The notes beneath the pieces were generated by a model. It was not told the DNA's origin and made no database searches. It saw nothing but the letters and a program-made list of their open reading frames with translations. Of a stretch of 64,000 bases of DNA, positions 8,354 to 44,778 are shown piece by piece. Within the stretch, counting starts at the first letter, position 1, and every line of letters begins with the position of its first letter. Where the stretch lies: positions 513,490 through 577,489 of the forward strand of contig CP174360.1 in assembly GCA_045401155.1 (NCBI GenBank), read 5' to 3'. The DNA comes from Candidatus Minusculum obligatum. GTDB taxonomy: Bacteria; Patescibacteriota; Minisyncoccia; Phycocordibacterales; Phycocordibacteraceae. The position numbers and the translations under genes are program-made.

Positions 8354-8425
8354 GGCCTGATGGCGAAGTGGTAACGCTGCGGTTTGCAAAACCGCCATGC
8401 GCGGGTTCGATTCCCGCTCAGGCCT
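8354..8425 (+). tRNA. tRNA-Cys (GCA)
   Basis: Cloverleaf by eye: acceptor ggcctga/tcaggcc, anticodon stem gcggt/accgc with loop ttGCAaa, T-arm gcggg-ttcgatt-cccgc, discriminator U. No encoded CCA. Confidence 0.85.
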
Positions 8426-8432
8426 CAATTTT

Positions 8433-8519
8433 GCCGGGATGGTGGAATTGGTAGACACGAGGGACTTAAACTCCCTTGATCAATTTATGATCGTGCGGGT
8501 TCGATTCCCGCTCCCGGCA
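8433..8519 (+). tRNA. tRNA-Leu (TAA), long variable arm
   Basis: Acceptor gccggga/tcccggc, anticodon stem aggga/tccct with loop ctTAAac, variable hairpin, T-arm gcggg-ttcgatt-cccgc. Confidence 0.85.
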
Positions 8520-8568
8520 CAAACATCTATTGCAAAATCTCGATAGTTCGATACTATCTCCCCTATAT

Positions 8569-8641
8569 CCGCCTATAGCTCAGCTGGTAGAGCAACTGCC
8601 TCTTAAGCAGTGGGTCCTAGGTTCGAGTCCTAGTGGGCGGA
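8569..8641 (+). tRNA. tRNA-Lys (CTT)
   Basis: D-arm gctcagctggtagagc, anticodon stem actgc/gcagt with loop ctCTTaa, T-arm ctagg-ttcgagt-cctag, acceptor ccgccta/tgggcgg (apparent C1:G72). Confidence 0.75.
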
Positions 8642-8660
8642 CACGCATTTGCGTAGCCAC

Positions 8661-8742
8661 GGGGATGTGGCGGAATTGGTAGACGCGCTAGTCTTAGGAA
8701 CTAGTAGGGCAACCTGTGGGGGTTCAAGTCCCCCCATCCCCA
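8661..8742 (+). tRNA. tRNA-Leu (TAG), long variable arm
   Basis: Acceptor ggggatg/catcccc, anticodon stem ctagt/actag with loop ctTAGga, T-arm ggggg-ttcaagt-ccccc. Confidence 0.85.
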
Positions 8743-8756
8743 CAAGTGTATGAATG

Positions 8757-8784
8757 AAGCCGCTTTATTAAGCGGTTTTATTCT
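8757..8784 (+). terminator. Rho-independent terminator after the infB-rbfA-tRNA cluster
   Basis: Hairpin gccgcttt-atta-aagcggt followed by a T-run. Confidence 0.6.
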
Positions 8785-8811
8785 TGACTATTGACATGTT
8801 TATGGTATAAT
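8784..8811 (+). promoter_or_regulatory. Sigma70-like promoter (TTGACT-16 nt-TATAAT) for the SPFH operon
   Basis: Near-consensus -35 and -10 hexamers with 16-nt spacer upstream of 8869. Confidence 0.55.
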
Positions 8812-8868
8812 AAATCTAGACACGTTGTTTGTCATCAAAACCTAGCAAAACAGAAAGGGGGTTCCTCC

Positions 8869-9870
8869 ATGTGGTGGAGCACATCTCTTTGGATCACTGG
8901 AGGAGTCCTCCTCTTGCTGATCATCGCGTTTTTCCTTTCCAAGAAAGGAACTACGCTTTCATTGGCTGTTGGTGTCGCTTTTAGCGTCCTCATCGGTCTT
9001 CTCATCTATGGAACAATCATCTATGCGCTTCGGCTCGAGATGTTCGTTCCGTCTTGGTTCGCGCAAATAGCCGCTCAAGTCATAGCGGCGGCAGCTGGCT
9101 TTCAAGTCTATCGGTTTGGAAGCGTTCTTGTGCCCCTAAAGCACAAGGCCGTGATCACCATCTTCGAAGAACGTCGGGATGAATGTCCGACCCTCGAAGA
9201 AGGCGCTGCCTGGCTTTTCCCCGGATTCATGAATGCCATCGCGGTCGATGCTCGGAAGTTCAATATTGATATTCCGCCTTTTTTCGTCTTCACAGAAGAC
9301 CTTATTAAGGTGGAGCTCAATCTTTCGAGCATCCTCTCGGTTGAGTGCCCAAACAAATATCTAAATGTCGATGCTGCAGAAAATATGATTCAGCAGCTCG
9401 CACGGCGCGCAGCGCGTGCCTGCTCAAACGACATTGGCGTAAGAGACATTGTCAAGCAAGACGACAAGATCTCCACCGCCATTCATGAAGAAGTTCAGGG
9501 TATTGTCTCTGATTGGGGCCTGAAGGTCCACTATATCAAGGCGGAGAATATCACGCCGCCTGATGAGATCGCGATGGAAGCTCAGCGCAAAGTGATCGAA
9601 GAGATCCAGCGCGAGGCGGAAGAGTATGAGGCGGAAACGCTTCAGCGGAAAATTTCCATTCTCGTCGACAAGTTCGAAAAGTATGGAATGACGCCGGACA
9701 AGGCCGCAAACCTGATCCAAGCAGAATCCAGCAAGATCACGCGTACGGCGTTTGACCTTGAGGGCATTGACAGTGTTAATGTCCTTCAGGCAGTCATCGC
9801 TTTCGCCGAAGCTCTGAAGGGCAAGGGATCGAAAGATACTGCTGGTACGGAAGAGGAGAGTGCGTCATGA
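8869..9870 (+). CDS. SPFH/band-7 domain membrane protein (HflK/HflC-stomatin family)
   Basis: Start MWWSTSLW preceded by an AAGGGGG Shine-Dalgarno. N-terminal TM segments, then a region collinear with HflK (VELNLSSILSVECPNKYLNV ... ITPPDEIAMEAQRKVIEEIQREAEEYEAE vs VEMNVQYRVTNPEKYLYSV ... RPPEEVKAAFDDAI..EAEAY). Gene body is markedly GC-richer than surrounding DNA. Confidence 0.75.
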   Translation: MWWSTSLWITGGVLLLLIIAFFLSKKGTTLSLAVGVAFSVLIGLLIYGTIIYALRLEMFVPSWFAQIAAQVIAAAAGFQVYRFGSVLVPLKHKAVITIFEERRDECPTLEEGAAWLFPGFMNAIAVDARKFNIDIPPFFVFTEDLIKVELNLSSILSVECPNKYLNVDAAENMIQQLARRAARACSNDIGVRDIVKQDDKISTAIHEEVQGIVSDWGLKVHYIKAENITPPDEIAMEAQRKVIEEIQREAEEYEAETLQRKISILVDKFEKYGMTPDKAANLIQAESSKITRTAFDLEGIDSVNVLQAVIAFAEALKGKGSKDTAGTEEESAS

Positions 9871-10307
9871 GCATGCCAACATCCCGTGCCGTTGAACACG
9901 GCCGCAATGCAACACCGCGAATGCTCTGGCTCTGGCTCATCATCGCGGCAATCATCGTTGGAAACGGGATCTATCACGTTCAGAAAATCGAACGCTCTCC
10001 CCTTTCCCAGCTCGCGCAAACGTCGAGAGACGCTACTTCGTTACCTGCCCAAGATACACCATGGGAGAACCAGGTTCTTGCAGCCGGCGAAGATACCCGC
10101 ATTCAATATGTGCCTGGTGGCTACCGGGTCTGCGTCAGCTCCTGGAGCGATCGTCAACGGTACTTCTGGTACGATGACGATCTTGAAGGAGATCTGAGGC
10201 CCCATGGTGGCGGAGACGTGACCATTGAACGTTTCCAGTTTCGGAACAGTTCGGACAACGAACTCCCGGTCCGCTTTCGGCTCATACCGTATGCACAAAC
10301 TTGCTAG
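9867..10307 (+). CDS. Membrane protein, possible NfeD-like partner of the SPFH protein
   Basis: ATGA-coupled to the SPFH gene. N-terminal TM helix plus a C-terminal ~70-aa soluble beta-rich region. SPFH genes are classically paired with nfeD; assignment is by context only. Confidence 0.4.
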   Translation: MSMPTSRAVEHGRNATPRMLWLWLIIAAIIVGNGIYHVQKIERSPLSQLAQTSRDATSLPAQDTPWENQVLAAGEDTRIQYVPGGYRVCVSSWSDRQRYFWYDDDLEGDLRPHGGGDVTIERFQFRNSSDNELPVRFRLIPYAQTC

Positions 10308-10321
10308 GTGTTGATACTAGC

Positions 10322-10358
10322 AAAACGGCGACCCCTCGGGGCCGCCGTTTTCTTTTTC
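10322..10358. terminator. GC-rich bidirectional rho-independent terminator between convergent genes
   Basis: aacggcgacccc-tc-ggggccgccgtt hairpin with T-run on + and A-run before it. Confidence 0.7.
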
Positions 10359-10359
10359 T

Positions 10360-10626
10360 TTACTGCAGATCTATCGGGGCATCGAGCCCAAATAGATTAA
10401 GAGTGATTCGCAACAATCCGAACACACCAATCATTATGGCAAGTCCGACAATTCCCCAAATCATATGACCCCTTCCTTTTGCACGCGTATCTTCACTTTG
10501 TCCAAAGGTGCCAATAAACTCAAGCACACCGTAAATAAAGATAACTGACGCAACACCAACAAGAAGTAAGATTAGAGGATTTACTATCTCTCGAACAATA
10601 CCATCAAGTAATCCGTCTAGATTCAT
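10360..10626 (-). CDS. Small two-helix membrane protein, paralog 1 of 4 (VirB2/TrbC-pilin-like architecture)
   Basis: 88 aa; TM1 - SEDTRAKGRG loop - MIWGIVGLAIMIGVFGLL TM2; shares a conserved motif with the next three ORFs. Confidence 0.55.
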   Translation of the reverse strand: MNLDGLLDGIVREIVNPLILLLVGVASVIFIYGVLEFIGTFGQSEDTRAKGRGHMIWGIVGLAIMIGVFGLLRITLNLFGLDAPIDLQ

Positions 10627-10630
10627 TTAA

Positions 10631-11026
10631 CTAGCGAATGTCCACTTCTGGAGGAGTAATAGTCTCTCCTTCAAGACCAAATGTTCCTACAAGAATGTTT
10701 ACAAGTCCCCATACTGATACCATCACGAAGAATGCAATGATTCCCCAAAGCATCAGCTGCTGACCTTCTTTTCGCTTGTCTTCTGAAGTTCCTCCAAGAA
10801 TAAAGCTTGTGAAAAGTCCCCAAACAAACACAATAAGTGCAAGCGCAAATACAAGCGGCACTAGTGTTCCATTAATAAAATTAATAACCGCATCTGCAAG
10901 ACCTTCAATGCTTCCAGCATTTTCAAACTGTGCAGCTGCAAGCAGTGGTGTAACCGCTACTGCGTACAGCGCAAGTCCACTTAGTGTTCCTGCTCCTAAA
11001 ATTCGTGTGTTCTTTTTCATACCCAT
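10631..11026 (-). CDS. Small two-helix membrane protein, paralog 2 of 4, with Sec-type signal peptide
   Basis: 131 aa; signal peptide ending AAA-Q, then TM1 - SEDKRKEGQQ loop - MLWGIIAFFVMVSVWGLV TM2. Confidence 0.55.
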   Translation of the reverse strand: MGMKKNTRILGAGTLSGLALYAVAVTPLLAAAQFENAGSIEGLADAVINFINGTLVPLVFALALIVFVWGLFTSFILGGTSEDKRKEGQQLMLWGIIAFFVMVSVWGLVNILVGTFGLEGETITPPEVDIR

Positions 11027-11083
11027 ACATAATACCGACCATATAGGTCGGCATCTAGATAAGTGAGTATTTAATGTGGATAT

Positions 11084-11329
11084 CTAAATACCAAATGATT
11101 TAAGTATAATGCGCACCAATCCCCACATAGAAACCACAACCGCAAACCCTATAATCCCCCACAACATGAACTGCGCACCCTCACTCCTAGACTTCGCATC
11201 ATCATATTTAACAAAGAAGTAGTTAAATATTCCCCACAAAAATAGCAAAAGCATTATTGCCAGCAACATAGGAATGATGCTGTTATTAAATATTTTTATG
11301 AGATATGTAACGAATTCTCGAAATGTCAT
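11084..11329 (-). CDS. Small two-helix membrane protein, paralog 3 of 4
   Basis: 81 aa; TM1 - DDAKSRSEGAQ loop - MLWGIIGFAVVVSMWGLV TM2. Confidence 0.55.
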   Translation of the reverse strand: MTFREFVTYLIKIFNNSIIPMLLAIMLLLFLWGIFNYFFVKYDDAKSRSEGAQFMLWGIIGFAVVVSMWGLVRIILKSFGI

Positions 11330-11751
11330 GATCCGCTTCCTATAGCTTCTACGGTCGCTTTAATAGCCTCTGCAATGATTTGCGCACCAATTAATATTAC
11401 TGCCCCTACAAGTGTCCAAAGTAGTGCTGCGCGAGCAGTCTTAATTGCCTCTGGATTTCCACGTGCATTTACAAACATAAACCCAACCACAACAATCATC
11501 ACAATCACCACCAATGTACCTAGGCGAACAATAAACTCTAAAATGTCAGTTAAAAACTCTTCCAGAGAATCAGCTTTTAGGGGGTTTTGAAGCTGGAACG
11601 TTGTGTTTCCAGGATTACCACCAGGAGTACCTACGCTGCCAGGATTACCTCCCGGGCTTCCTGTGCCACCAGGATTGCCTCCCTGCGCAAGAACCGCAAC
11701 CGGCGTCAAAACAAGAGAGAGTCCAAATAGAAATGAGAATAGTGTTTTCAT
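11326..11751 (-). CDS. Divergent paralog 4: signal peptide + GGNPG tandem-repeat linker + two-helix hairpin (VirB2/TrbC-like)
   Basis: 141 aa; signal peptide ..AVLA-QGG; three imperfect 10-aa repeats GGNPGxxGxP encoded by a ~30-nt tandem DNA repeat (11610-11700); then TM1 - NARGNPEAIKTAR loop - TM2. Confidence 0.5.
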   Translation of the reverse strand: MKTLFSFLFGLSLVLTPVAVLAQGGNPGGTGSPGGNPGSVGTPGGNPGNTTFQLQNPLKADSLEEFLTDILEFIVRLGTLVVIVMIVVVGFMFVNARGNPEAIKTARAALLWTLVGAVILIGAQIIAEAIKATVEAIGSGS

Positions 11752-13007
11752 AATTGTCGTAATAGTCGTTGTGCTTTTGTTAATGCTCCTATCGCATCTT
11801 CTCTACCACTTACTACATCATCAACCATAGCAGAGAAGATCTCGCCCACCTGCTCTGGCTGTGGAGAGAGCCATGCTTTTGCAATAAACGCTTCGTTATA
11901 TGCAAGATCTAGTACAGGATCTGCCTGTCGATTTGAAAGCAGTGTGCGCAGTACTGGAGCAATGTTTGATGCACTTGAAAATGCGTATGCATTGTTTTGA
12001 TTAATAAATGCAAATGCTGCAGTCTGAGATCCACTTACACTACGAGCTGCTTTTGGCACCGCAAATACATACACACTTCCGTATACAACCGGCACCCCAC
12101 CTTCAAGCTGTGGGAATGGAGCTGCTGCAAATGAGAGGTTTGGGTTTAATCCAGAAAGCACCTTTCCTTCGCTTGCTGGCGCAAAGTATAGCGTTAGATC
12201 TCCAAGCAAAAACGCCTTCTGATCCTCTTCTAAACTTTTATTCCATGAATACGCACTTGTATTTGGATTTGCAAACTCTGTATAGAAGCGAAGCGCACTC
12301 TCTGTGTCCTCACTATCTCCTCCAATAAGCTCTATCTGCCCTCTTGTATCACGAATGGGTGACCCTACTTGGAATAAGAAGCTTGCGAGCACCTTTTCTG
12401 CATGACGGATATTGCTATACGCACCAAGCGCTACAAAACTTTTATTGATTGAAAAACTTCCTGTTGTCTCAACAAAACGCGGCACAAGACCAACAAACTG
12501 CTCCCAAAACGCAGGTGCCTGACTTACGCGAGCACTATTAAGATGTGTCTTGTTATAAAACATCACAAGTGGGTCTACACCAACTGGAATACCAAGGTAC
12601 CCGTTTTGTGTAATCACCACATCTGCAACATCAACAAACGTGTCATCAAAGGTACGTGCTGGATATGTTTCAAAACTAATCGGCGCAAGTGTTTCTGAAA
12701 TTGATCCCAAAAGCTCATGCGGTACTAAAACCATGTCTGGCCCACGATCTGCAGCGAGCGCCTGGATATATGAATCATAAAAATCACTTTGATCTACCTC
12801 TACATAACTCACCCGATCAAAATCATCACGTCGATCTCGTACATTTCCAAGTGCTGCGCGCACCTCCTCCTTTGGAAGCGTTCCCCAAATAACAACTTCT
12901 CCAATAGTATTTTTATTATTTGAAGGATTTGCACCCGCAAAGACTAAAAGTCCGACGATAGCAAAAATCGCAAACCCCGCTGTTAAAATTAATTGAAATG
13001 GCTTCAT
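11748..13007 (-). CDS. Extracellular solute-binding protein (ABC-type family 1, MalE-like), membrane-anchored, orphan
   Basis: N-terminal TM anchor; VVIWGTLPKEE, LVPHELLGS, YLGIPVGVDPLVMFYNKTHL blocks typical of SBP_bac_1. No permease or ATPase adjacent. Confidence 0.5.
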   Translation of the reverse strand: MKPFQLILTAGFAIFAIVGLLVFAGANPSNNKNTIGEVVIWGTLPKEEVRAALGNVRDRRDDFDRVSYVEVDQSDFYDSYIQALAADRGPDMVLVPHELLGSISETLAPISFETYPARTFDDTFVDVADVVITQNGYLGIPVGVDPLVMFYNKTHLNSARVSQAPAFWEQFVGLVPRFVETTGSFSINKSFVALGAYSNIRHAEKVLASFLFQVGSPIRDTRGQIELIGGDSEDTESALRFYTEFANPNTSAYSWNKSLEEDQKAFLLGDLTLYFAPASEGKVLSGLNPNLSFAAAPFPQLEGGVPVVYGSVYVFAVPKAARSVSGSQTAAFAFINQNNAYAFSSASNIAPVLRTLLSNRQADPVLDLAYNEAFIAKAWLSPQPEQVGEIFSAMVDDVVSGREDAIGALTKAQRLLRQL

Positions 13008-13546
13008 GCTGGTTTCTTAAATACTAACGCATAATGGTGCGGTCCCGCACGAAATGCTTTCTCCTTGTGAAATCCCATATCGAGGAACAGGCGCTCTGCC
13101 TTATACTCCTCAATTACATTTTCCTGACGAGGACCAATGTTCCCATAGCTCCCTGCCCAATCAACTACGAGCACCTTTCCTCCTGGTTTTAAGATACGCC
13201 TGATCTCTGTAAGCGCGGCATTTGTATCCTCAATCTGAAACAGTACATTTCCTAAAATAACTGCATCGGCAGTCTCTGCTTTTAGTTTTGTGCCAAACTG
13301 CACCTCAATATCTCCCCATACGGTAGTGATATTAGAGAACCCATGCTCTACCGCCTCACGCTTAAGCGCCTTAAGTACATCCTCTTGTACATCAAGTGCA
13401 TACACGCGACCATCCGCACCAACAACAGGTGCTGCTGCAAGCGCGTAGTGCCCTACACCACTTCCAACATCAACAACGCGCATACCCTCACGCAGCCCCA
13501 TTTGTAGGATATTTGATTGCGGATTAGAAAATTCCATTACCCTCAA
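13004..13546 (-). CDS. Class I SAM-dependent methyltransferase
   Basis: VVDVGSGVGHYAL motif I, acidic motif II (ALDVQED), KPGGKVLVVD. Confidence 0.7.
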   Translation of the reverse strand: MRVMEFSNPQSNILQMGLREGMRVVDVGSGVGHYALAAAPVVGADGRVYALDVQEDVLKALKREAVEHGFSNITTVWGDIEVQFGTKLKAETADAVILGNVLFQIEDTNAALTEIRRILKPGGKVLVVDWAGSYGNIGPRQENVIEEYKAERLFLDMGFHKEKAFRAGPHHYALVFKKPA

Positions 13547-13577: not shown

Positions 13578-16052
13578 TTACTCAACAGTTAGAAGAACAA
13601 TTGAAGCAACCGCGTCTCCTGCTCGAAGCTTCATGATGCGCACTCCTTGTGTGCTTCGTCCTTGTGATGGGATTTCTGATACTCCCGTACGGATCACCTG
13701 CCCCTTCTTAGAGATAGCAACAAGCTCATACTGCTTAAGATCACCAATTAACATGCGTCCTCCCACGATCTTCCCTGTCTTGTCGGTAACTCCTGCAGTC
13801 TTAATTCCAGAACCTGCGCGCTTTTGCTGCTTATATTCCTTAAGCGGCGTGTGCTTTCCATACCCTGTCTCACTCACCACAAGAAGCTCTGCTTCTTTCT
13901 CCTTCCCTGCAGGAAGAATATGTCCTGAGACAACACGATCATCTTTAGAAAGCTTGATACCACGAACTCCAGCTGCAGTCCGCCCCATCTCGCGCGCATC
14001 TGCTTCTGGGAAGCGAATTGCCTGACCATTTTCTGTCACAATCACTACATCATCTCCCTCCGCAATAAAGTGCGCTACCACAAGCTTGTCTCCATCCTTT
14101 AGATTGATGGCGATAATTCCACTTCGACGCACATCTGAGAAGCTTTTTGCAGATACCTTCTTAATAGTTCCATCTCGTGTAATAAACAGGAGACTCATTG
14201 CTTCAAGCTCAGCACCCTTAGGTACCGCAAGTGCTCCAGTTACATGCTCATCTCCCGCAAGTGCTAGGAAGTTTGCAATACTCTTTCCTTTTGTGGCGCG
14301 ACGTCCCTCTGGAATGTCATACATTTTCACCTGATATGCTTTACCAGCATCTGTAAAGAAGAGTAGGTTTGCATGTGTTGAGGCTGTAATAAAGGTGTGC
14401 ACCACATCCTCCTCCTTTGTAGAAAGGTCAATCACACCAACACCACCGCGCTTTTGCTTCTTGTACTCATTTGGATTGGTTCGCTTTACATACCCACCCT
14501 TGGTAAGCACCAACACGCTCTCCTCCTCTGGCACAAGATCTTCTACTGAAATATTCTTAACTCCTCCCTTTACGATCTTGGTACGACGATCATCTCCATG
14601 CTTTTCAGATAGATCTGCAAGCTCTTTCTTAATAACCGTCAGCATCTTCTTTTCACTTGCAAGAATAGCCTTAAGCTCTGCAATAAGCTTTTGTACCTCA
14701 AGAAGCTCATCCTCAATCTTTTTACGCTCAAGTCCTGCAAGCTTCTGTAGACGCATCTCAAGAATCGCAGTCGCCTGGCGATCTGAGAACTTAAACTTCT
14801 TCATTAAATTGGCATGCGCCTCTGGCACATCCTTTGCTGCACGAATAATCTTGATGATCTCATCGATGTGATCAAGCGCCTTCTTAAGTCCAAGCAAGAT
14901 GTGTTCTCGCTCCTCTGCCTTATTTAAATCAAATTGTGTTCGGCGCTTTACAACCTCCTTTCGGTGTCCCAAAAATGCCTCAAGCATCTCCTTAAGAGAA
15001 AGTGTCTGTGGCACACCATCTACCAAAGCAACCATGTTGTAGTGGAACGTATCTTCAAGCTGCGTGTACTTATAGATATTATTTAGAACAGTTTGAGGGT
15101 GCGCTGTTCCCTTCAGCTCAATGATCACACGAATATCATCAGTAGACTCATCTCGAATATCTCTAATACCTTCAATCTTCTTATCTCGCGCAAGATCAGC
15201 GATCTTCATAATAAGATCAGCTTTATTTACACGAAATGGAATTGAAGAAATGACAATATGGAATCCCTTCTTCTCCTCTACGATCTCAGCCTCTCCTCGC
15301 ACCACAACTCCACCGCGTCCATTTGAGTACGCGTGTACGATGTCTTTTTGATTAAAAGCAATACCTCCAAGTGGGAAATCAGGACCTTTAACAAACTGCA
15401 GAAGATCTTCGGTTGTTGCCTTTGGATTATCTGCAAGATACACAATGGCATCGATAAGCTCTCGCAAGTTGTGTGGAGGGATATTTGTTGCCATTCCAAC
15501 GGCAATACCAAGGGTTCCATTTAGAAGAAGGTTCGGTGCGACAGTAGGAAGCACCACAGGCTCTTTGCGAGTCGCATCATAGTTTGGTCGCCACGCAACA
15601 GTATCCTTATCAATATCACGAAGCATTTCCTCAGCGATCTTATCCATCTTTGCTTCGGTATATCGCATAGCAGCTGGAGAGTCTCCATCAACAGATCCGA
15701 AGTTTCCCTGCCCATTTACAAGTGTGTAGCGCGTTGTAAAATCCTGCGCCAATTTTGCCATAGCATCATACACAGCGGTATCACCATGCGGGTGGTACTT
15801 TCCGAGCACATCTCCTACCACCGCAGCACTCTTTCTGAAGCGTGCGCTTGGTGTAAGTCCCATCTCCTTCATTACAAAAAGAATACGGCGATGTACCGGC
15901 TTAAGTCCGTCTCGCACGTCAGGAAGTGCACGCATGGTAATAACGCTCATTGCATAATCAAGGTATGCAGTACGCATCTCCTCTACAATGCTTTGGTCAA
16001 TTACATTTGAAGCAACTACCTTCTCCTCATTTTCTTCCTTTTTCTTTGCCAT
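13578..16052 (-). CDS. gyrA: DNA gyrase subunit A
   Basis: [25 protein letters not shown], active-site Tyr region, C-terminal beta-pinwheel repeats; 824 aa. Confidence 0.92.
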
Positions 16053-16053
16053 A

Positions 16054-16407
16054 TTAGAATGTCAGTACGGTATCACGCTCCTTCTCCTCAATCGTAGATG
16101 AACGATCTGTCTCTACAATCTCAAGACGAGCCTCTCCTTCATATTGCCCCGGAGCCTCTTGCGAAAGATCTTCAAAAGAAGCTGCGGCACCCGCAAATCC
16201 AGCCTGGAATGTATTAGCAAGATCAGAAATTGGGTGTGTATTACTCTCCTGCTCTCCCACTGGCTTATATGCAAGTGGCTTTGCAACAACCATAGTCACA
16301 CCCCAGATCATAAAAATAGAAAGGCTAATTGCTGCAGCAGAAGTGTACGCATACTTCTTACGTACATGCTCTGGCTTTTGTCTTATTTCGTGGAGTGTTT
16401 TTCTCAT
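16054..16407 (-). CDS. Hypothetical membrane-anchored protein
   Basis: ORF with one TM helix; 4-nt overlap with the upstream gene; no recognisable family. Confidence 0.35.
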
Positions 16408-17015
16408 ACCTTTAGTACCATAATAGCACCTTTTGCCTCACTTACATCCTTCTTTTTAAGGGTCAGTTTGTCTGTTGGCTTTTCAGCTCCCTCCTTGCAG
16501 AAGGTCTTGAGCGCATCCTTATCCCCCATTCCTTCATAGTGCATTGGAATGATGACATTGGCCTCAAGCTTTGTTGCAAGCTTATGTGCTTTATCTGCAT
16601 CTAGCACACCAGCCCCTCCAATTGGCACAAAAAGAATATCAACTTCATCGAGCGCCTCCCTAGCATCTGCAGGAAGATTCTCATCACTTAGTGCTCCAAG
16701 AAACACAAGTGTCATACCCTCAAGCTCAACCACATACATAGTATTAAGTCCTTCAGGACCTCCATGCTCACTCTTTGTCTGGTATCCACGAATCGCAACA
16801 CCATTCTTCTCATATGCTCCAGGACCTGCGATAACAAAAGAATCATCTTTTGCGCCATTAAAATCAGAATGAATCTTTGAGATAAGGGTAATATCCGCAC
16901 CAAACTTAACTGCAGGAAGCTTTGAATCCTTACTTGGTGGATCAAATACAAGTGTCGTGTCACCAAAACTAACCTTAAAACATTGCCCTCCGTGATGCGT
17001 AATAACCATAGTCAA
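16404..17015 (-). CDS. MBL-fold metallo-hydrolase
   Basis: Metallo-beta-lactamase-like His/Asp spacing (ITHHGGQCF..., IPMHYEG). Confidence 0.55.
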   Translation of the reverse strand: MTMVITHHGGQCFKVSFGDTTLVFDPPSKDSKLPAVKFGADITLISKIHSDFNGAKDDSFVIAGPGAYEKNGVAIRGYQTKSEHGGPEGLNTMYVVELEGMTLVFLGALSDENLPADAREALDEVDILFVPIGGAGVLDADKAHKLATKLEANVIIPMHYEGMGDKDALKTFCKEGAEKPTDKLTLKKKDVSEAKGAIMVLKV

Positions 17016-17149
17016 AACAGTATATCACCTTGTCCAAAATAGACAATATTTCCTTTTGTTAAGCCATATTCTATATATTTTGCAAGACCACATTTTAAAA
17101 CTATTGACAAGTTTTATATTTGTAGTACTATCCTTTCATCCCTAGAGGA

Positions 17150-17745
17150 GAGTTATGGGCTGCTCGTAATCACGAGCCTTGAAAGTGCCGACGCGACTGT
17201 CGGTGGAAAATTCTCTCAAACAATGATCCTTCAAATCCCACGAGGTTTGAACATGACCAATCGTCACATCCGGGGTTCGACCGTCAATGGTCCGGCTTAT
17301 GAAAATACGAGCTCGACCCTGGACATCGATTCCGCGCCGACGTGCGGCTGGCGGTCGGCCTGATCGGCCGGCCAGGCCGGGAGGCAGTCACCGTGTGACG
17401 TGACTCCCGCCTGAGACCAGAGCAACCACCGCGATACAAGCTGCGCGCTTGGGGAGGTACTCATGTTTGTATTTCGACTTATGTCCCCGTACGCTACGGC
17501 GTGCGGGTAACATAGCCCTCTAAAATTTCGGGCAATACCCTGGTCCGGGCAGGACCACTTGAGATCGAGAAAGAGGCGTATAAGATTAATATCGCGTGCT
17601 GTGCACCGATCACTTTATCAGAATACACGCCTACCTAGGGAGCGTACTCCCAAGATCTCTATGACTTGCGGCTGTGGAGCTTGCGCGCAAATGCGCTCTC
17701 TACAGCCCGGTCCCAACCGTCTCTCTTGAGACGGTTTTTCTTTAC
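17150..17745 (+). ncRNA. Unclassified GC-rich structured-RNA candidate (~570-600 nt; strand tentative)
   Basis: 850-nt gap with no ORF of 60 aa or more. An abrupt GC-rich core (17150-17720) in an AT-rich genome, multiple internal hairpins (e.g. GCUCGU-aauc-ACGAGC; GGGAG..GUCAC-cgu-GUGAC..CUCCC), an upstream TTGACA box (17104) and a hairpin+T-run at 17716-17745. No CR-I or CR-V RNase P motifs in canonical order, no tRNA-like end and no clean SRP domain IV were found. Confidence 0.5.
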
Positions 17746-17869
17746 ATTTCACACATTTACCGCTATATTCTCCCTACTTCAGTACGGAGTTTTTTATTAC
17801 CTGTATGTCGGCTAACACTGCACTCTTAACGCAGTACCGAATACACAACTCCCGAACAAGAAAATACAT

Positions 17870-26665: not shown

Positions 26666-27352
26666 TTACGAGCGCGGTACAGAAATACGCTCAATTGATT
26701 TATTTCTGTGAATTAACTCATCGTCTCGAATTGAGCAAAATAGCTCATATTCATTCAGACATTCACGTCCATAAAATTTTAAAAACTCGCTTTCTACTGT
26801 TTTCTTTTTCATTTCTTCCCCACACTGCTCAATAAACTCACTGTACTGCTGATACGCGTGTGACTCAAAAAGATAATTGAGTTCAAGTGCTGACTTTCTT
26901 TTCACCGTATAAAGAATAGAGCTTACGATGTAATAAAAGAAAGAAAACAGAAGCGGGATAAGGTAGTGTCGAAATGGCCCTCCAAGACCCTCTCTTTTTG
27001 CAATCTGGCTCATTACCACCACGTGCATCGTTTCATTATCTTGGGCGATTCTTCCAAAACGAGATGTATATGTAAGATTAATTGCTTTCTTCTCATCTCC
27101 ATACATGGCGGTTAAAAACATGTATGAGACCCACTCCCATGCCTGGTATGGAATACGTGCAATAACTTCTACTGCCTTAAATTTCTCGTATGAAGGCTTC
27201 TTTCCATATACAAAATTTCCAGCGCCAACAAGTATTGTTCCAAAAATCTTTGCGGTTAAACCAACCTTGTAGTCGTTACATTTATTCTCGTATTTTTTCT
27301 TAAATTCAGGGTCTTTCAGCTTCTCTAGGAGCTCTTCGTGTTTTGGATCCAT
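26666..27352 (-). CDS. Alternative oxidase (AOX/PTOX)-like di-iron carboxylate protein
   Basis: Four AOX-type iron-ligand motifs in order: VEVIARIP (cf. LETVAGVP), DNETMHV (cf. NERMHL), LFESHAYQQY (cf. LEEEAxHSY), IRDDELIHRN (cf. RADEAHHRD). Confidence 0.55.
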   Translation of the reverse strand: MDPKHEELLEKLKDPEFKKKYENKCNDYKVGLTAKIFGTILVGAGNFVYGKKPSYEKFKAVEVIARIPYQAWEWVSYMFLTAMYGDEKKAINLTYTSRFGRIAQDNETMHVVVMSQIAKREGLGGPFRHYLIPLLFSFFYYIVSSILYTVKRKSALELNYLFESHAYQQYSEFIEQCGEEMKKKTVESEFLKFYGRECLNEYELFCSIRDDELIHRNKSIERISVPRS

Positions 27353-44423: not shown

Positions 44424-44460
44424 AAACACTCGGGTTTTATCCCGAGTGTTTTCATTTTTT
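44424..44460. terminator. Palindromic rho-independent terminator immediately downstream of rnpB
   Basis: aaaacactcggg-ttttat-cccgagtgtttt, a 12-bp hairpin flanked by A-run and T-run. Confidence 0.7.
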
Positions 44461-44778
44461 ATATCGTGGCTATAAGCCGGATTCTGTACCATCTCTGGTG
44501 ACAATCATTTACCTTGCCATTTTGTTACCAAAATGATCTTTGCGGCACTCTCTAGAAACTAGAGTACGGCCTTGCACGCAGATAGGAATTTAGCCGTTTC
44601 ACCCATATGTTGCCATATGATTATCCCACAAGGGGTCCCTCTCATCTCTGATCAGGCGTCACTGCTCGCATCCCTAAGATTGCTCTCGACGGGCGTTACC
44701 CGCTACCCTGCTACTGAAAAATCAGTGCGTGTCCGGACTTTCCTCACATATTGCGCGATTGTCCACCACGACAAGCAC
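44460..44778 (-). ncRNA. rnpB: RNase P RNA (bacterial-type rnpB)
   Basis: Reverse complement contains GAGGAAAGUCCGGAC (CR-I/P4 5' strand), CAGGGUAGCGGGUAACGCCCGUC (P5-P5.1-P7 region, cf. CAGGGUGCCAGGUAACGCCUGG), AUGGGUGAAACGG (CR-II-like) and ACAGAAUCCGGCUUAU (CR-V/P4 3' strand). P1 pairs GUCGUGGU with AGCCACGAU. Length ~320 nt. Confidence 0.85.

Follow-up and report, generated by a model that had tools for sequence, protein, structure and literature searches.

Four small tandem genes in a 64-kb stretch of the genome of Candidatus Minusculum obligatum (contig CP174360.1, positions 513,490 to 577,489, forward strand; this whole stretch is called the window below) encode proteins of 88, 131, 81 and 141 amino acids (aa). 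Profile comparisons supported their assignment to the VirB2/TrbC type of pilins, a family already known from ultrasmall Patescibacteria. Judging from synteny, the four genes sit in an ancient conserved operon beside gyrA and not in a mobile island, as the original prediction for this region had proposed. The kind of pilin is itself already known. What appears to be new is the conserved operon of gyrA, a methyltransferase gene, a gene for a binding-fold protein and pilin genes with a fixed paralog order, found in Paceibacteria, together with a recombining cassette for an SPFH protein and its small partner that converges on it.

We compared the four proteins with hidden Markov models (HMMs). The 88-, 131- and 141-aa proteins exceeded the gathering score of Pfam T4SS_pilin PF18895 (26.6 bits), and the 81-aa protein (26.2 bits) fell just short of it. 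With a clade-specific pilin HMM, the 81-aa protein gave an E-value of 2e-26. On TrbC/VirB2 PF04956 (cut-off 27.9 bits), the 141-aa protein scored 27.7 bits (E 3e-6), just under the cut-off, and the other three proteins had no direct match. The family of the 141-aa protein comprised 68 members from related genomes; PF18895 was found in all 68 and TrbC (E <= 1e-3) in 45, with a best TrbC E-value of 1e-9. The 131-aa protein had 649 homologs. PF18895 was present in all of the 120 listed, and every named source among them belonged to the Patescibacteria. All four paralogs also matched NCBIfam NF045849 below its threshold (E 2.6e-8 to 1.5e-3, 18-33 bits against a cut-off of 40), which fits an origin from a type IV secretion system (T4SS) of monoderm bacteria. 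The paralogs fall into the types B (141 aa), A-short (81 aa), A-long (131 aa) and C (88 aa), in the order of the array. Their pairwise identity was only 22-32%, and the B and A types were homologous by hhalign (probability 97.9%, E 4e-13). No pilin gene beyond these four was found in the window with the clade-specific HMM. The HMM matches support the original prediction, which had called the proteins VirB2/TrbC-like.

Alignment and hydropathy showed two hydrophobic helices with a short basic loop between them. The loop and second-helix motif described in the original prediction was present in three of the four paralogs. An AlphaFold2 model of the 131-aa protein, built from 100 sequences (mean pLDDT 78.5), placed helices at residues 9-36, 40-77 and 82-115, that is, a signal helix and then a long hairpin. 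A site resembling A-x-A followed by Q was found only in the 131-aa (TPLLAAAQ) and 141-aa (TPVAVLAQ) proteins, and cleavage is predicted there. The processing motif of Agrobacterium VirB2 is PAxAQ (PMC4074166); among the relatives of the 131-aa type, 30 of 88 had the motif P..A.AQ. In the B type, a Gly/Pro-rich (GGNPG)n stretch lies between the signal peptide and the TrbC/VirB2-like hairpin, and it is encoded by a 30-nt tandem repeat at 11609-11668. B-type orthologs (85-223 aa) had similar low-complexity tracts of varying length.

Over 98% of its length, the 131-aa pilin matched a 129-aa NCBI protein from Patescibacteria group bacterium UBA2103 at 100% identity. An NCBI entry from the same source, named 'SPFH domain-containing protein', had the same full-length sequence as the SPFH protein of the window. 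A metagenome-assembled genome named UBA2103 is also among our species set (locus L012, DCYT01000001.1). Its GyrA was only 90% and its SPFH protein 55% identical to those of the window. This divergence, despite the NCBI matches under the same name, indicates that two different genomes are called UBA2103. When the contig index was searched for exact copies of the 131-aa pilin and the SPFH protein, neither was found.

We then surveyed gyrA-anchored loci in species-representative genomes labelled Kaiser-, Nomura-, Wolfe- and Adlerbacteria and Paceibacteria. The survey covered 80 loci with GyrA identities of 65-90% to the window, and the presence of the block was scored in the 56 loci that had at least 3.5 kb downstream of gyrA. 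Mapping by tblastn and HMMs revealed nearly everywhere the order Lactamase_B_3, (117-aa gene), gyrA, methyltransferase, MalE-like protein, pilins. The binding protein and the pilins were found in 53 of the 56 loci and the methyltransferase in 52. A second survey was anchored on the pilins and used metagenome contigs with loci of at least 7 kb; the A-type alignment served as the query, the B type being too divergent. The same context was seen at 30 of 31 loci. One JGI contig (L081) carried the complete gene order of the window, including the SPFH pair. All pilin open reading frames (ORFs) lay on the gyrA strand (276/276). The genes are also tightly packed. The gap from the binding-protein gene to the first pilin gene had a median of 3 bp and in 56 of 60 loci did not exceed 20 bp; for the methyltransferase and binding-protein genes, the median was -4 bp.

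The order of paralogs within the array was similarly regular. Clustering of the pilins gave the order B, short A, one to four long A, and C last. Among the 47 complete arrays, BAAC was found 18 times, BAAAC seven times and BBAAAC five times, and cluster C came last in 41. Such a fixed grammar implies that the paralogs are old and positionally orthologous, and a fixed set of this kind argues for distinct structural roles, not for variation. The pilin, binding-protein and methyltransferase genes had an ordinary composition: their GC content at third codon positions (GC3) was 0.29-0.44, against a window mean of 0.357.

At L129 (6920-14398), the only pilin-anchored metagenome locus with another context, a pair of pilin-like genes immediately precedes an F-type ATP synthase operon. 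The product of the second gene (89 aa) might be a c subunit caught by an HMM for hydrophobic hairpins. VirB4 was looked for alongside this array, and the neighbours were the genes of the F-type ATP synthase operon. Another observation concerns a larger gene that follows nifS, a 269-aa gene and clpB at about 8-10 kb from the array in L081 (1-36) and L105 (17978-19093). In L081 it encodes a 272-aa product with a weak PF18895 match on record. The ORF of L105 encodes 371 aa and was matched by the clade-specific pilin HMM alone, with no Pfam family at E <= 0.001. By synteny, the counterpart in Ca. Minusculum obligatum would lie just beyond the start of the window.

The neighbours of the pilin genes are listed in Table 1 with the other features. 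The start of the first pilin gene overlaps the stop of the gene for the MalE-like protein, and the two genes are predicted to be translationally coupled. The best solved relative of the MalE-like protein was the maltodextrin-binding protein 2gh9 (E 5e-6). No ATP-binding cassette (ABC) permease or ATPase gene was found in the operon, here or in the relatives; the only ABC genes of the window are ftsEX at 61.7-63.3 kb. A match of the methyltransferase to PADLOC mad2 was rejected as a generic match to its S-adenosylmethionine (SAM) domain. Between 10.3 and 17.3 kb, the sole promoter-like site on the minus strand was at 17046-17019, and weak terminator-like sites were seen on that strand at 13494-13476 and 16196-16182. 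Because of the close spacing and because no minus-strand promoter matches lie inside the block, the genes for Lactamase_B_3, the 117-aa protein and GyrA, a conserved housekeeping context, are probably co-transcribed with the pilin array.

Table 1. Features of the pilin operon, the converging SPFH unit and the adjoining tRNA cluster (window coordinates).
Feature	Position	Strand	Evidence or remark
tRNA cluster	8354..8743	+	ARAGORN, Rfam
tRNA-Cys(gca)	8354-8426	+	ARAGORN, Rfam
tRNA-Leu(taa)	8433-8520	+	ARAGORN, Rfam
tRNA-Lys(ctt)	8569-8642	+	ARAGORN, Rfam
tRNA-Leu(tag)	8661-8743	+	ARAGORN, Rfam
Sigma-70-like promoter TTGACT-16-TATAAT, extended -10 TG	8784..8811	+	Upstream of SPFH gene; 11/12 consensus positions
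SPFH/Band 7 membrane protein, 333 aa, N-terminal hydrophobic region	8869..9870	+	Band_7 73.9 bits, E 2e-20
146-aa single-pass membrane protein, hypervariable C-terminal domain with Cys pair	9867..10307	+	ATGA overlap with SPFH stop
GC-rich hairpin	10322..10351 (about)	both	dG -24.0 (+), -24.7 (-) kcal/mol; z -4.5, -4.7
Pilin, C type, 88 aa, no signal peptide, last in array	10360..10626	-	PF18895 32.5 bits
Pilin, A-long type, 131 aa, Sec signal peptide TPLLAAA/Q, then two-helix hairpin	10631..11026	-	PF18895 36.9 bits
Pilin, A-short type, 81 aa, no signal peptide, second in array	11084..11329	-	PF18895 26.2 bits
Pilin, B type, 141 aa, signal peptide TPVAVLA/Q, first in array	11326..11751	-	PF18895 34.5 bits
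Membrane-anchored MalE-like solute-binding-fold protein, 419 aa	11748..13007	-	SBP_bac_8 40.7 bits (threshold 27)
Class I SAM-dependent methyltransferase, 180 aa	13004..13546	-	Methyltransf_31 72.1 bits; end overlaps start of binding-protein gene by 4 bp
gyrA	13578-16052	-	Upstream, same strand as pilins
117-aa protein gene	16054-16407	-	Upstream, same strand as pilins
Lactamase_B_3	16404-17015	-	Upstream, same strand as pilins

Nearly all features that the original prediction had described were present: the four tRNA genes, the near-consensus promoter, the SPFH gene with its ATGA overlap and the terminator, and, converging on them, the four two-helix paralogs followed by the MalE-like protein and the methyltransferase, most of them at the positions given. 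By its consensus match, the promoter is likely to drive the SPFH gene. The SPFH protein scored above the gathering score of Band_7 PF01145 (23.6 bits), and an indexed search found only four homologs of it. The stop of its gene overlaps the ATG of the 146-aa ORF at 9867-9870, and translational coupling of the two genes is predicted. Between the SPFH pair and the pilin operon, the hairpin at about 10322-10351 is flanked by T and A runs with a U-run after it, and none of 200 shuffled sequences folded as well. It is predicted to be a two-way intrinsic terminator for the two converging units.

The SPFH pair differed from its surroundings both in composition and in its rate of change. The GC content of the two genes was 0.51 and 0.55, and their GC3 was 0.575 and 0.578, with z-scores of +5.1 and +5.2 relative to 52 other genes (0.36 +/- 0.04). 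In the relatives, the excess of GC3 was graded (SPFH/partner: 0.50/0.45 in L012, 0.40/0.42 in L081 and 0.40/0.50 in L001). The SPFH protein was 50-55% identical to its orthologs in L012 and L081, whereas the neighbouring genes were 61-88% identical. In the comparison with L081, the SPFH protein was 50% and the partner only 33% identical. At L001 and L002, with GyrA identities of 89% and 86%, the same slot holds SPFH proteins that had no BLAST similarity to that of the window and yet remained Band_7 by HMM (27-28 bits). Thus two unrelated SPFH types exist among sister genomes. An iterated HMM search found an SPFH protein convergent to the pilin array in 12 of 21 spanning loci, and most of the other nine had a comparable pair of a large and a small gene in this slot.

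The original prediction had called the 146-aa protein NfeD-like. We found no Pfam or NCBIfam match for it at E <= 1, NfeD (PF01957) included, and a full HMMER profile pass through 1.84 billion representative proteins gave only two true homologs. An AlphaFold2 model from two sequences (pLDDT 45.7) was unusable, and the HMM searches did not support an assignment to NfeD. By BLAST, the small partners of the SPFH proteins matched each other only within two pairs of sister loci and showed no similarity across lineages. They share an architecture of N-terminal transmembrane segment(s) followed by a C-terminal domain. In loci L001-L076, this domain mostly had two Cys, one internal and the other among the last 1-8 residues, a pattern that suggests a disulfide-bonded, fast-evolving ectodomain. 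The partner of L081 (8978-9427) was a mosaic. Its N-terminal part resembled the window protein (E 2e-10), and its C-terminal domain resembled the L002 partner (16199-16669; 48% identity, E 2e-28), despite SPFH proteins in L081 and L002 that are unrelated by BLAST. This mosaic implies domain exchange by recombination. The best reading of the SPFH unit is that of a hypervariable, recombining cassette in a conserved slot, replaced at least once among close relatives, and not of a mobile element.

Known operons of the closest kind pair a stomatin or flotillin gene with an NfeD gene (for example, qmcA-ybbJ of E. coli). The SPFH unit resembles these operons in that an SPFH gene is translationally coupled to the gene of a small protein that has a membrane anchor and a soluble domain rich in beta structure. 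However, the partner in the window has no NfeD HMM match and very few real homologs, and its outer domain has a Cys pair and is swapped between lineages.

We favour, as a reasonably probable reading, that the region consists of two adjacent and converging units of the core chromosome of a Paceibacteria-type Patescibacterium, a relative of UBA2103, and that the pilins serve a T4SS. The first unit, on the minus strand at about 17015-10360, would comprise the genes for the Lactamase_B-like protein, the 117-aa protein, GyrA, the SAM-methyltransferase, the MalE-like protein and the pilins B, A-short, A-long and C. In the cytoplasmic membrane, each of the four pilins would form a hairpin of two helices joined on the cytoplasmic side by a short loop with positive charge, and signal peptidase I would cut the two signal-peptide-bearing ones at A-x-A before Q, a site that resembles the PAxAQ site of VirB2. 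They would be non-redundant subunits, one TrbC-like and three accessory, of the pilus or conduit of a relaxase-less, monoderm-type T4SS, which would extract and polymerise the membrane-inserted subunits. The ATPase and channel genes of this T4SS would lie elsewhere in the genome, typically near dnaA. The binding-fold protein would be a probable cell-surface partner, an adhesin or a ligand-capture module. In the second unit, on the plus strand at 8784-10351, the strong promoter would give rise to an SPFH membrane scaffold and a co-translated single-pass partner, whose outer domain would diversify fast and be swapped between lineages by recombination.

The original prediction had instead read the whole of 8.35-13.5 kb as a horizontally acquired island at the tRNA cluster, with orphan conjugative pilin genes. 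The region does adjoin four tRNA genes, the SPFH pair is GC-rich (GC3 z = +5) and the SPFH type differs between sister genomes. However, relatives down to 65% GyrA identity carry the block in the same place, which is the very observation that the original prediction had named as speaking against an island, and the synteny data led us to reject this reading for 10360-13546. The change of composition that had been reported was real for the SPFH pair (8869-10307), whereas the pilin, binding-protein and methyltransferase genes (10360-13546) had native GC3. As had been claimed, no VirB4, VirD4, relaxase or integrase was found in the window, and no transposase either, in domain scans that took every ORF of at least 150 aa. 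A search of the far border for att-like repeats of a tRNA 3' end was also negative, and the only repeats found were internal to the tRNAs. The Cys/Leu/Lys/Leu tRNA set itself was syntenic and adjoined rbfA in all 21 related loci that span the region, so the tRNA cluster is part of a conserved neighbourhood and not an integration site. For the SPFH pair, part of the island claim stood: its composition looks foreign and it was replaced between sister genomes, but its slot holds an SPFH and small-membrane-protein pair in many relatives. As an account of the whole region, the island is scarcely credible. Another suggestion was that the small proteins are secreted membrane-active peptides, similar to bacteriocins or holins, and not structural subunits. 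They are indeed small and very hydrophobic, and two have signal peptides. This is nevertheless very improbable in view of the T4SS_pilin and TrbC matches, and no immunity, export or lysis genes are adjacent and no relevant PHROG or PADLOC matches were found. Position-specific orthologs in a housekeeping operon across a whole class are also unlike the patchy distribution of toxins.

Several observations weigh against our own reading. Two of the four paralogs (81 and 88 aa) have no signal peptide. Fold searches returned only generic helical hairpins and coiled coils, with no VirB2 or TraA match, so that the modelled structure appears neither to add to nor to detract from the HMM evidence for pilin identity, and neither the pilin profile nor the 141-aa protein hit a pilin in sequence searches of the PDB. 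T4SS ATPase or channel genes were found neither in the 64 kb nor in the about 110 related loci inspected. The proposed connection with a T4SS is therefore based on homology of the protein family and on studies of other classes in the literature. For the SPFH unit, the excess of GC3 could reflect a gene-specific bias or biased gene conversion instead of import. Moreover, no described T4SS cluster shows such close coupling with a gene for a solute-binding-fold protein and with a housekeeping operon, and this arrangement could point to a role independent of a T4SS. VirB2-family proteins might thus have been co-opted into a constitutive envelope complex with the MalE-like protein, and perhaps the methyltransferase, that is expressed together with gyrA. 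It could be a small hetero-oligomeric membrane channel or a surface fibre that catches a host-derived sugar or other ligand. In its favour are the short intergenic distances, the retention of the block in 53 of 56 and 30 of 31 loci, the lack of an ABC permease or ATPase and of VirB4 beside any array, and the fixed paralog order, which implies distinct non-redundant subunits. However, VirB2/TrbC-family proteins are known solely as T4SS pilins, and with VirB4 in 2,417 of 3,035 Patescibacteria assemblies (PMC12102498), a partner machine probably exists. Nor is the adjacency of genes proof that their products form a physical complex. We regard such a complex as unlikely, though worth keeping in mind. 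A more far-reaching version is rather doubtful. In Paceibacteria, the pilins may have been split from the T4SS cluster into the housekeeping operon, where they would form, with the binding protein and the methyltransferase, a surface organelle beside an SPFH module. The organelle would be a constitutive hetero-oligomeric surface fibre or conduit of four to seven fixed subunit types, whose binding protein catches a host-derived ligand; it would serve nutrient scavenging or host docking, distinct from a T4SS for effectors or DNA transfer. The SPFH scaffold and its recombining, disulfide-bonded ectodomain partner would form a diversifying surface module.

For the surface appendage that the original prediction had raised as possibly undescribed, there are precedents. 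VirB2-like arrays in Patescibacteria were published in 2023 and 2025 (PMC10633639, PMC12102498), and a review called these systems unique among monoderms (PMC12857230). Ca. Southlakia epibionticum has an essential series of predicted VirB2-like pilins in its T4SS cluster (PMC10633639). A phylum-wide survey by PF04956 and PF18895 found VirB2-like genes in 1,948 assemblies, near virB4 in 1,135, and 441 VirB2 arrays of 2-11 genes; the T4SS is usually encoded near dnaA (PMC12102498). We found the present gene context nowhere described in that paper, in which gyrA and solute-binding proteins are unmentioned. A search of its supplement for this genome and its relatives gave no match, and the array map (supplementary Fig. 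S9) marks arrays near virB4. The array of the window shares much with those published from Ca. Southlakia epibionticum ML1 (SEML1_0006-0019) and Nanosynbacter lyticus TM7x. The families by which they are detected (PF18895 and PF04956) are the same, they form tandems of 2-11 divergent paralogs, with about 25% mean identity against 22-32% in the window, and in both cases the array is chromosomal in a monoderm host and has no relaxase. The published arrays lie in or near the virB4 cluster and come mostly from Saccharimonadia and Microgenomatia, whereas ours is of the Paceibacteria type, has no T4SS gene within 64 kb, and sits in a gyrA operon, where it is translationally coupled to the genes for a MalE-like protein and a methyltransferase. 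The order of its paralogs is conserved over about 80 genomes, which argues for fixed roles against the antigenic or host-range variation proposed in PMC12102498.

More distant systems show a similar mixture of likeness and difference. The pilins share with Agrobacterium VirB2 (the T-pilin) and IncP TrbC two hydrophobic helices and a short cytoplasmic loop and, in two of the four, a Sec signal peptide and a site that resembles PAxAQ, and the HMM score of the B type is just below the TrbC cut-off and better in its orthologs. However, VirB2 or TrbC is encoded by a single gene in a complete virB or trb operon of a diderm and is cyclised by a dedicated or host enzyme, whereas the window has four paralogs, two of them without a signal peptide, in a monoderm with no adjacent machinery. 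In the T4SSs of Anaplasma, Bartonella and Rickettsia, several divergent virB2 copies likewise form a chromosomal tandem that is separated from part of the machinery. Those arrays are strain-variable and are thought to serve antigenic variation in animal hosts, whereas the array positions of the window type have conserved orthologs across the class. The Mbov_0395 family of pilin-like conjugal transfer proteins (NF045849) from Mycoplasma integrative and conjugative elements resembles our pilins in being a small two-helix protein of a monoderm, MPF-FATA-type system. Its genes lie in mobile elements with VirB4 and a relaxase, and the proteins of the window score below its cut-off.

The window as a whole covers housekeeping genes of a Patescibacterial (CPR) chromosome. 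Among them are the genes for a short IF-2 of 500 aa, rbfA, gyrA, rpsA, pth, lepB, ftsA/Z, murB, murJ, lepA, ribonucleotide reductase, groEL and RNase J, and an RNase P RNA of the bacterial class A at 44457-44774 (-). The tRNAs Cys, Leu-taa, Lys and Leu-tag stand beside rbfA clade-wide, with order and orientation shuffled in more distant genomes. A 228-aa ORF at 26666-27352 (-) had a weak Pfam match to alternative oxidase (33 bits), which is unexpected for a CPR genome said to be without a respiratory chain. Between the Lactamase_B_3 gene and rpsA there is a gap of 855 bp without genes (17016-17869), in which no ORF exceeds 56 aa and the GC content is 0.537, against 0.435 for the window. Its features are a promoter-like site (17104-17131, +) and, at about 17712-17745, a hairpin with a T-run; a 616-nt stretch of it folds at z = -5.8. 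No Rfam match and no tmRNA were found in it. About 300 nt, at 73% identity, are common to L001 only, and the equivalent gap in L081 is not GC-rich. The gap could hold an unannotated lineage-specific structured RNA.

These results remove a false positive for horizontal transfer: tRNA neighbours and an odd GC content in one gene pair do not make an island. A large part of the diversity of bacteria is made up by Patescibacteria, which apparently depend on host cells. Their T4SS with its pilin array is the only T4SS shown to be essential for the growth of its carrier (Ca. Southlakia; PMC10633639, PMC12857230). In Paceibacteria, the largest class, pilin paralogs are core genes that lie in fixed order beside gyrA and are coupled to a binding-fold protein. 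This pattern argues for distinct structural roles of the paralogs over variation, and it names the MalE-like protein as their candidate partner.

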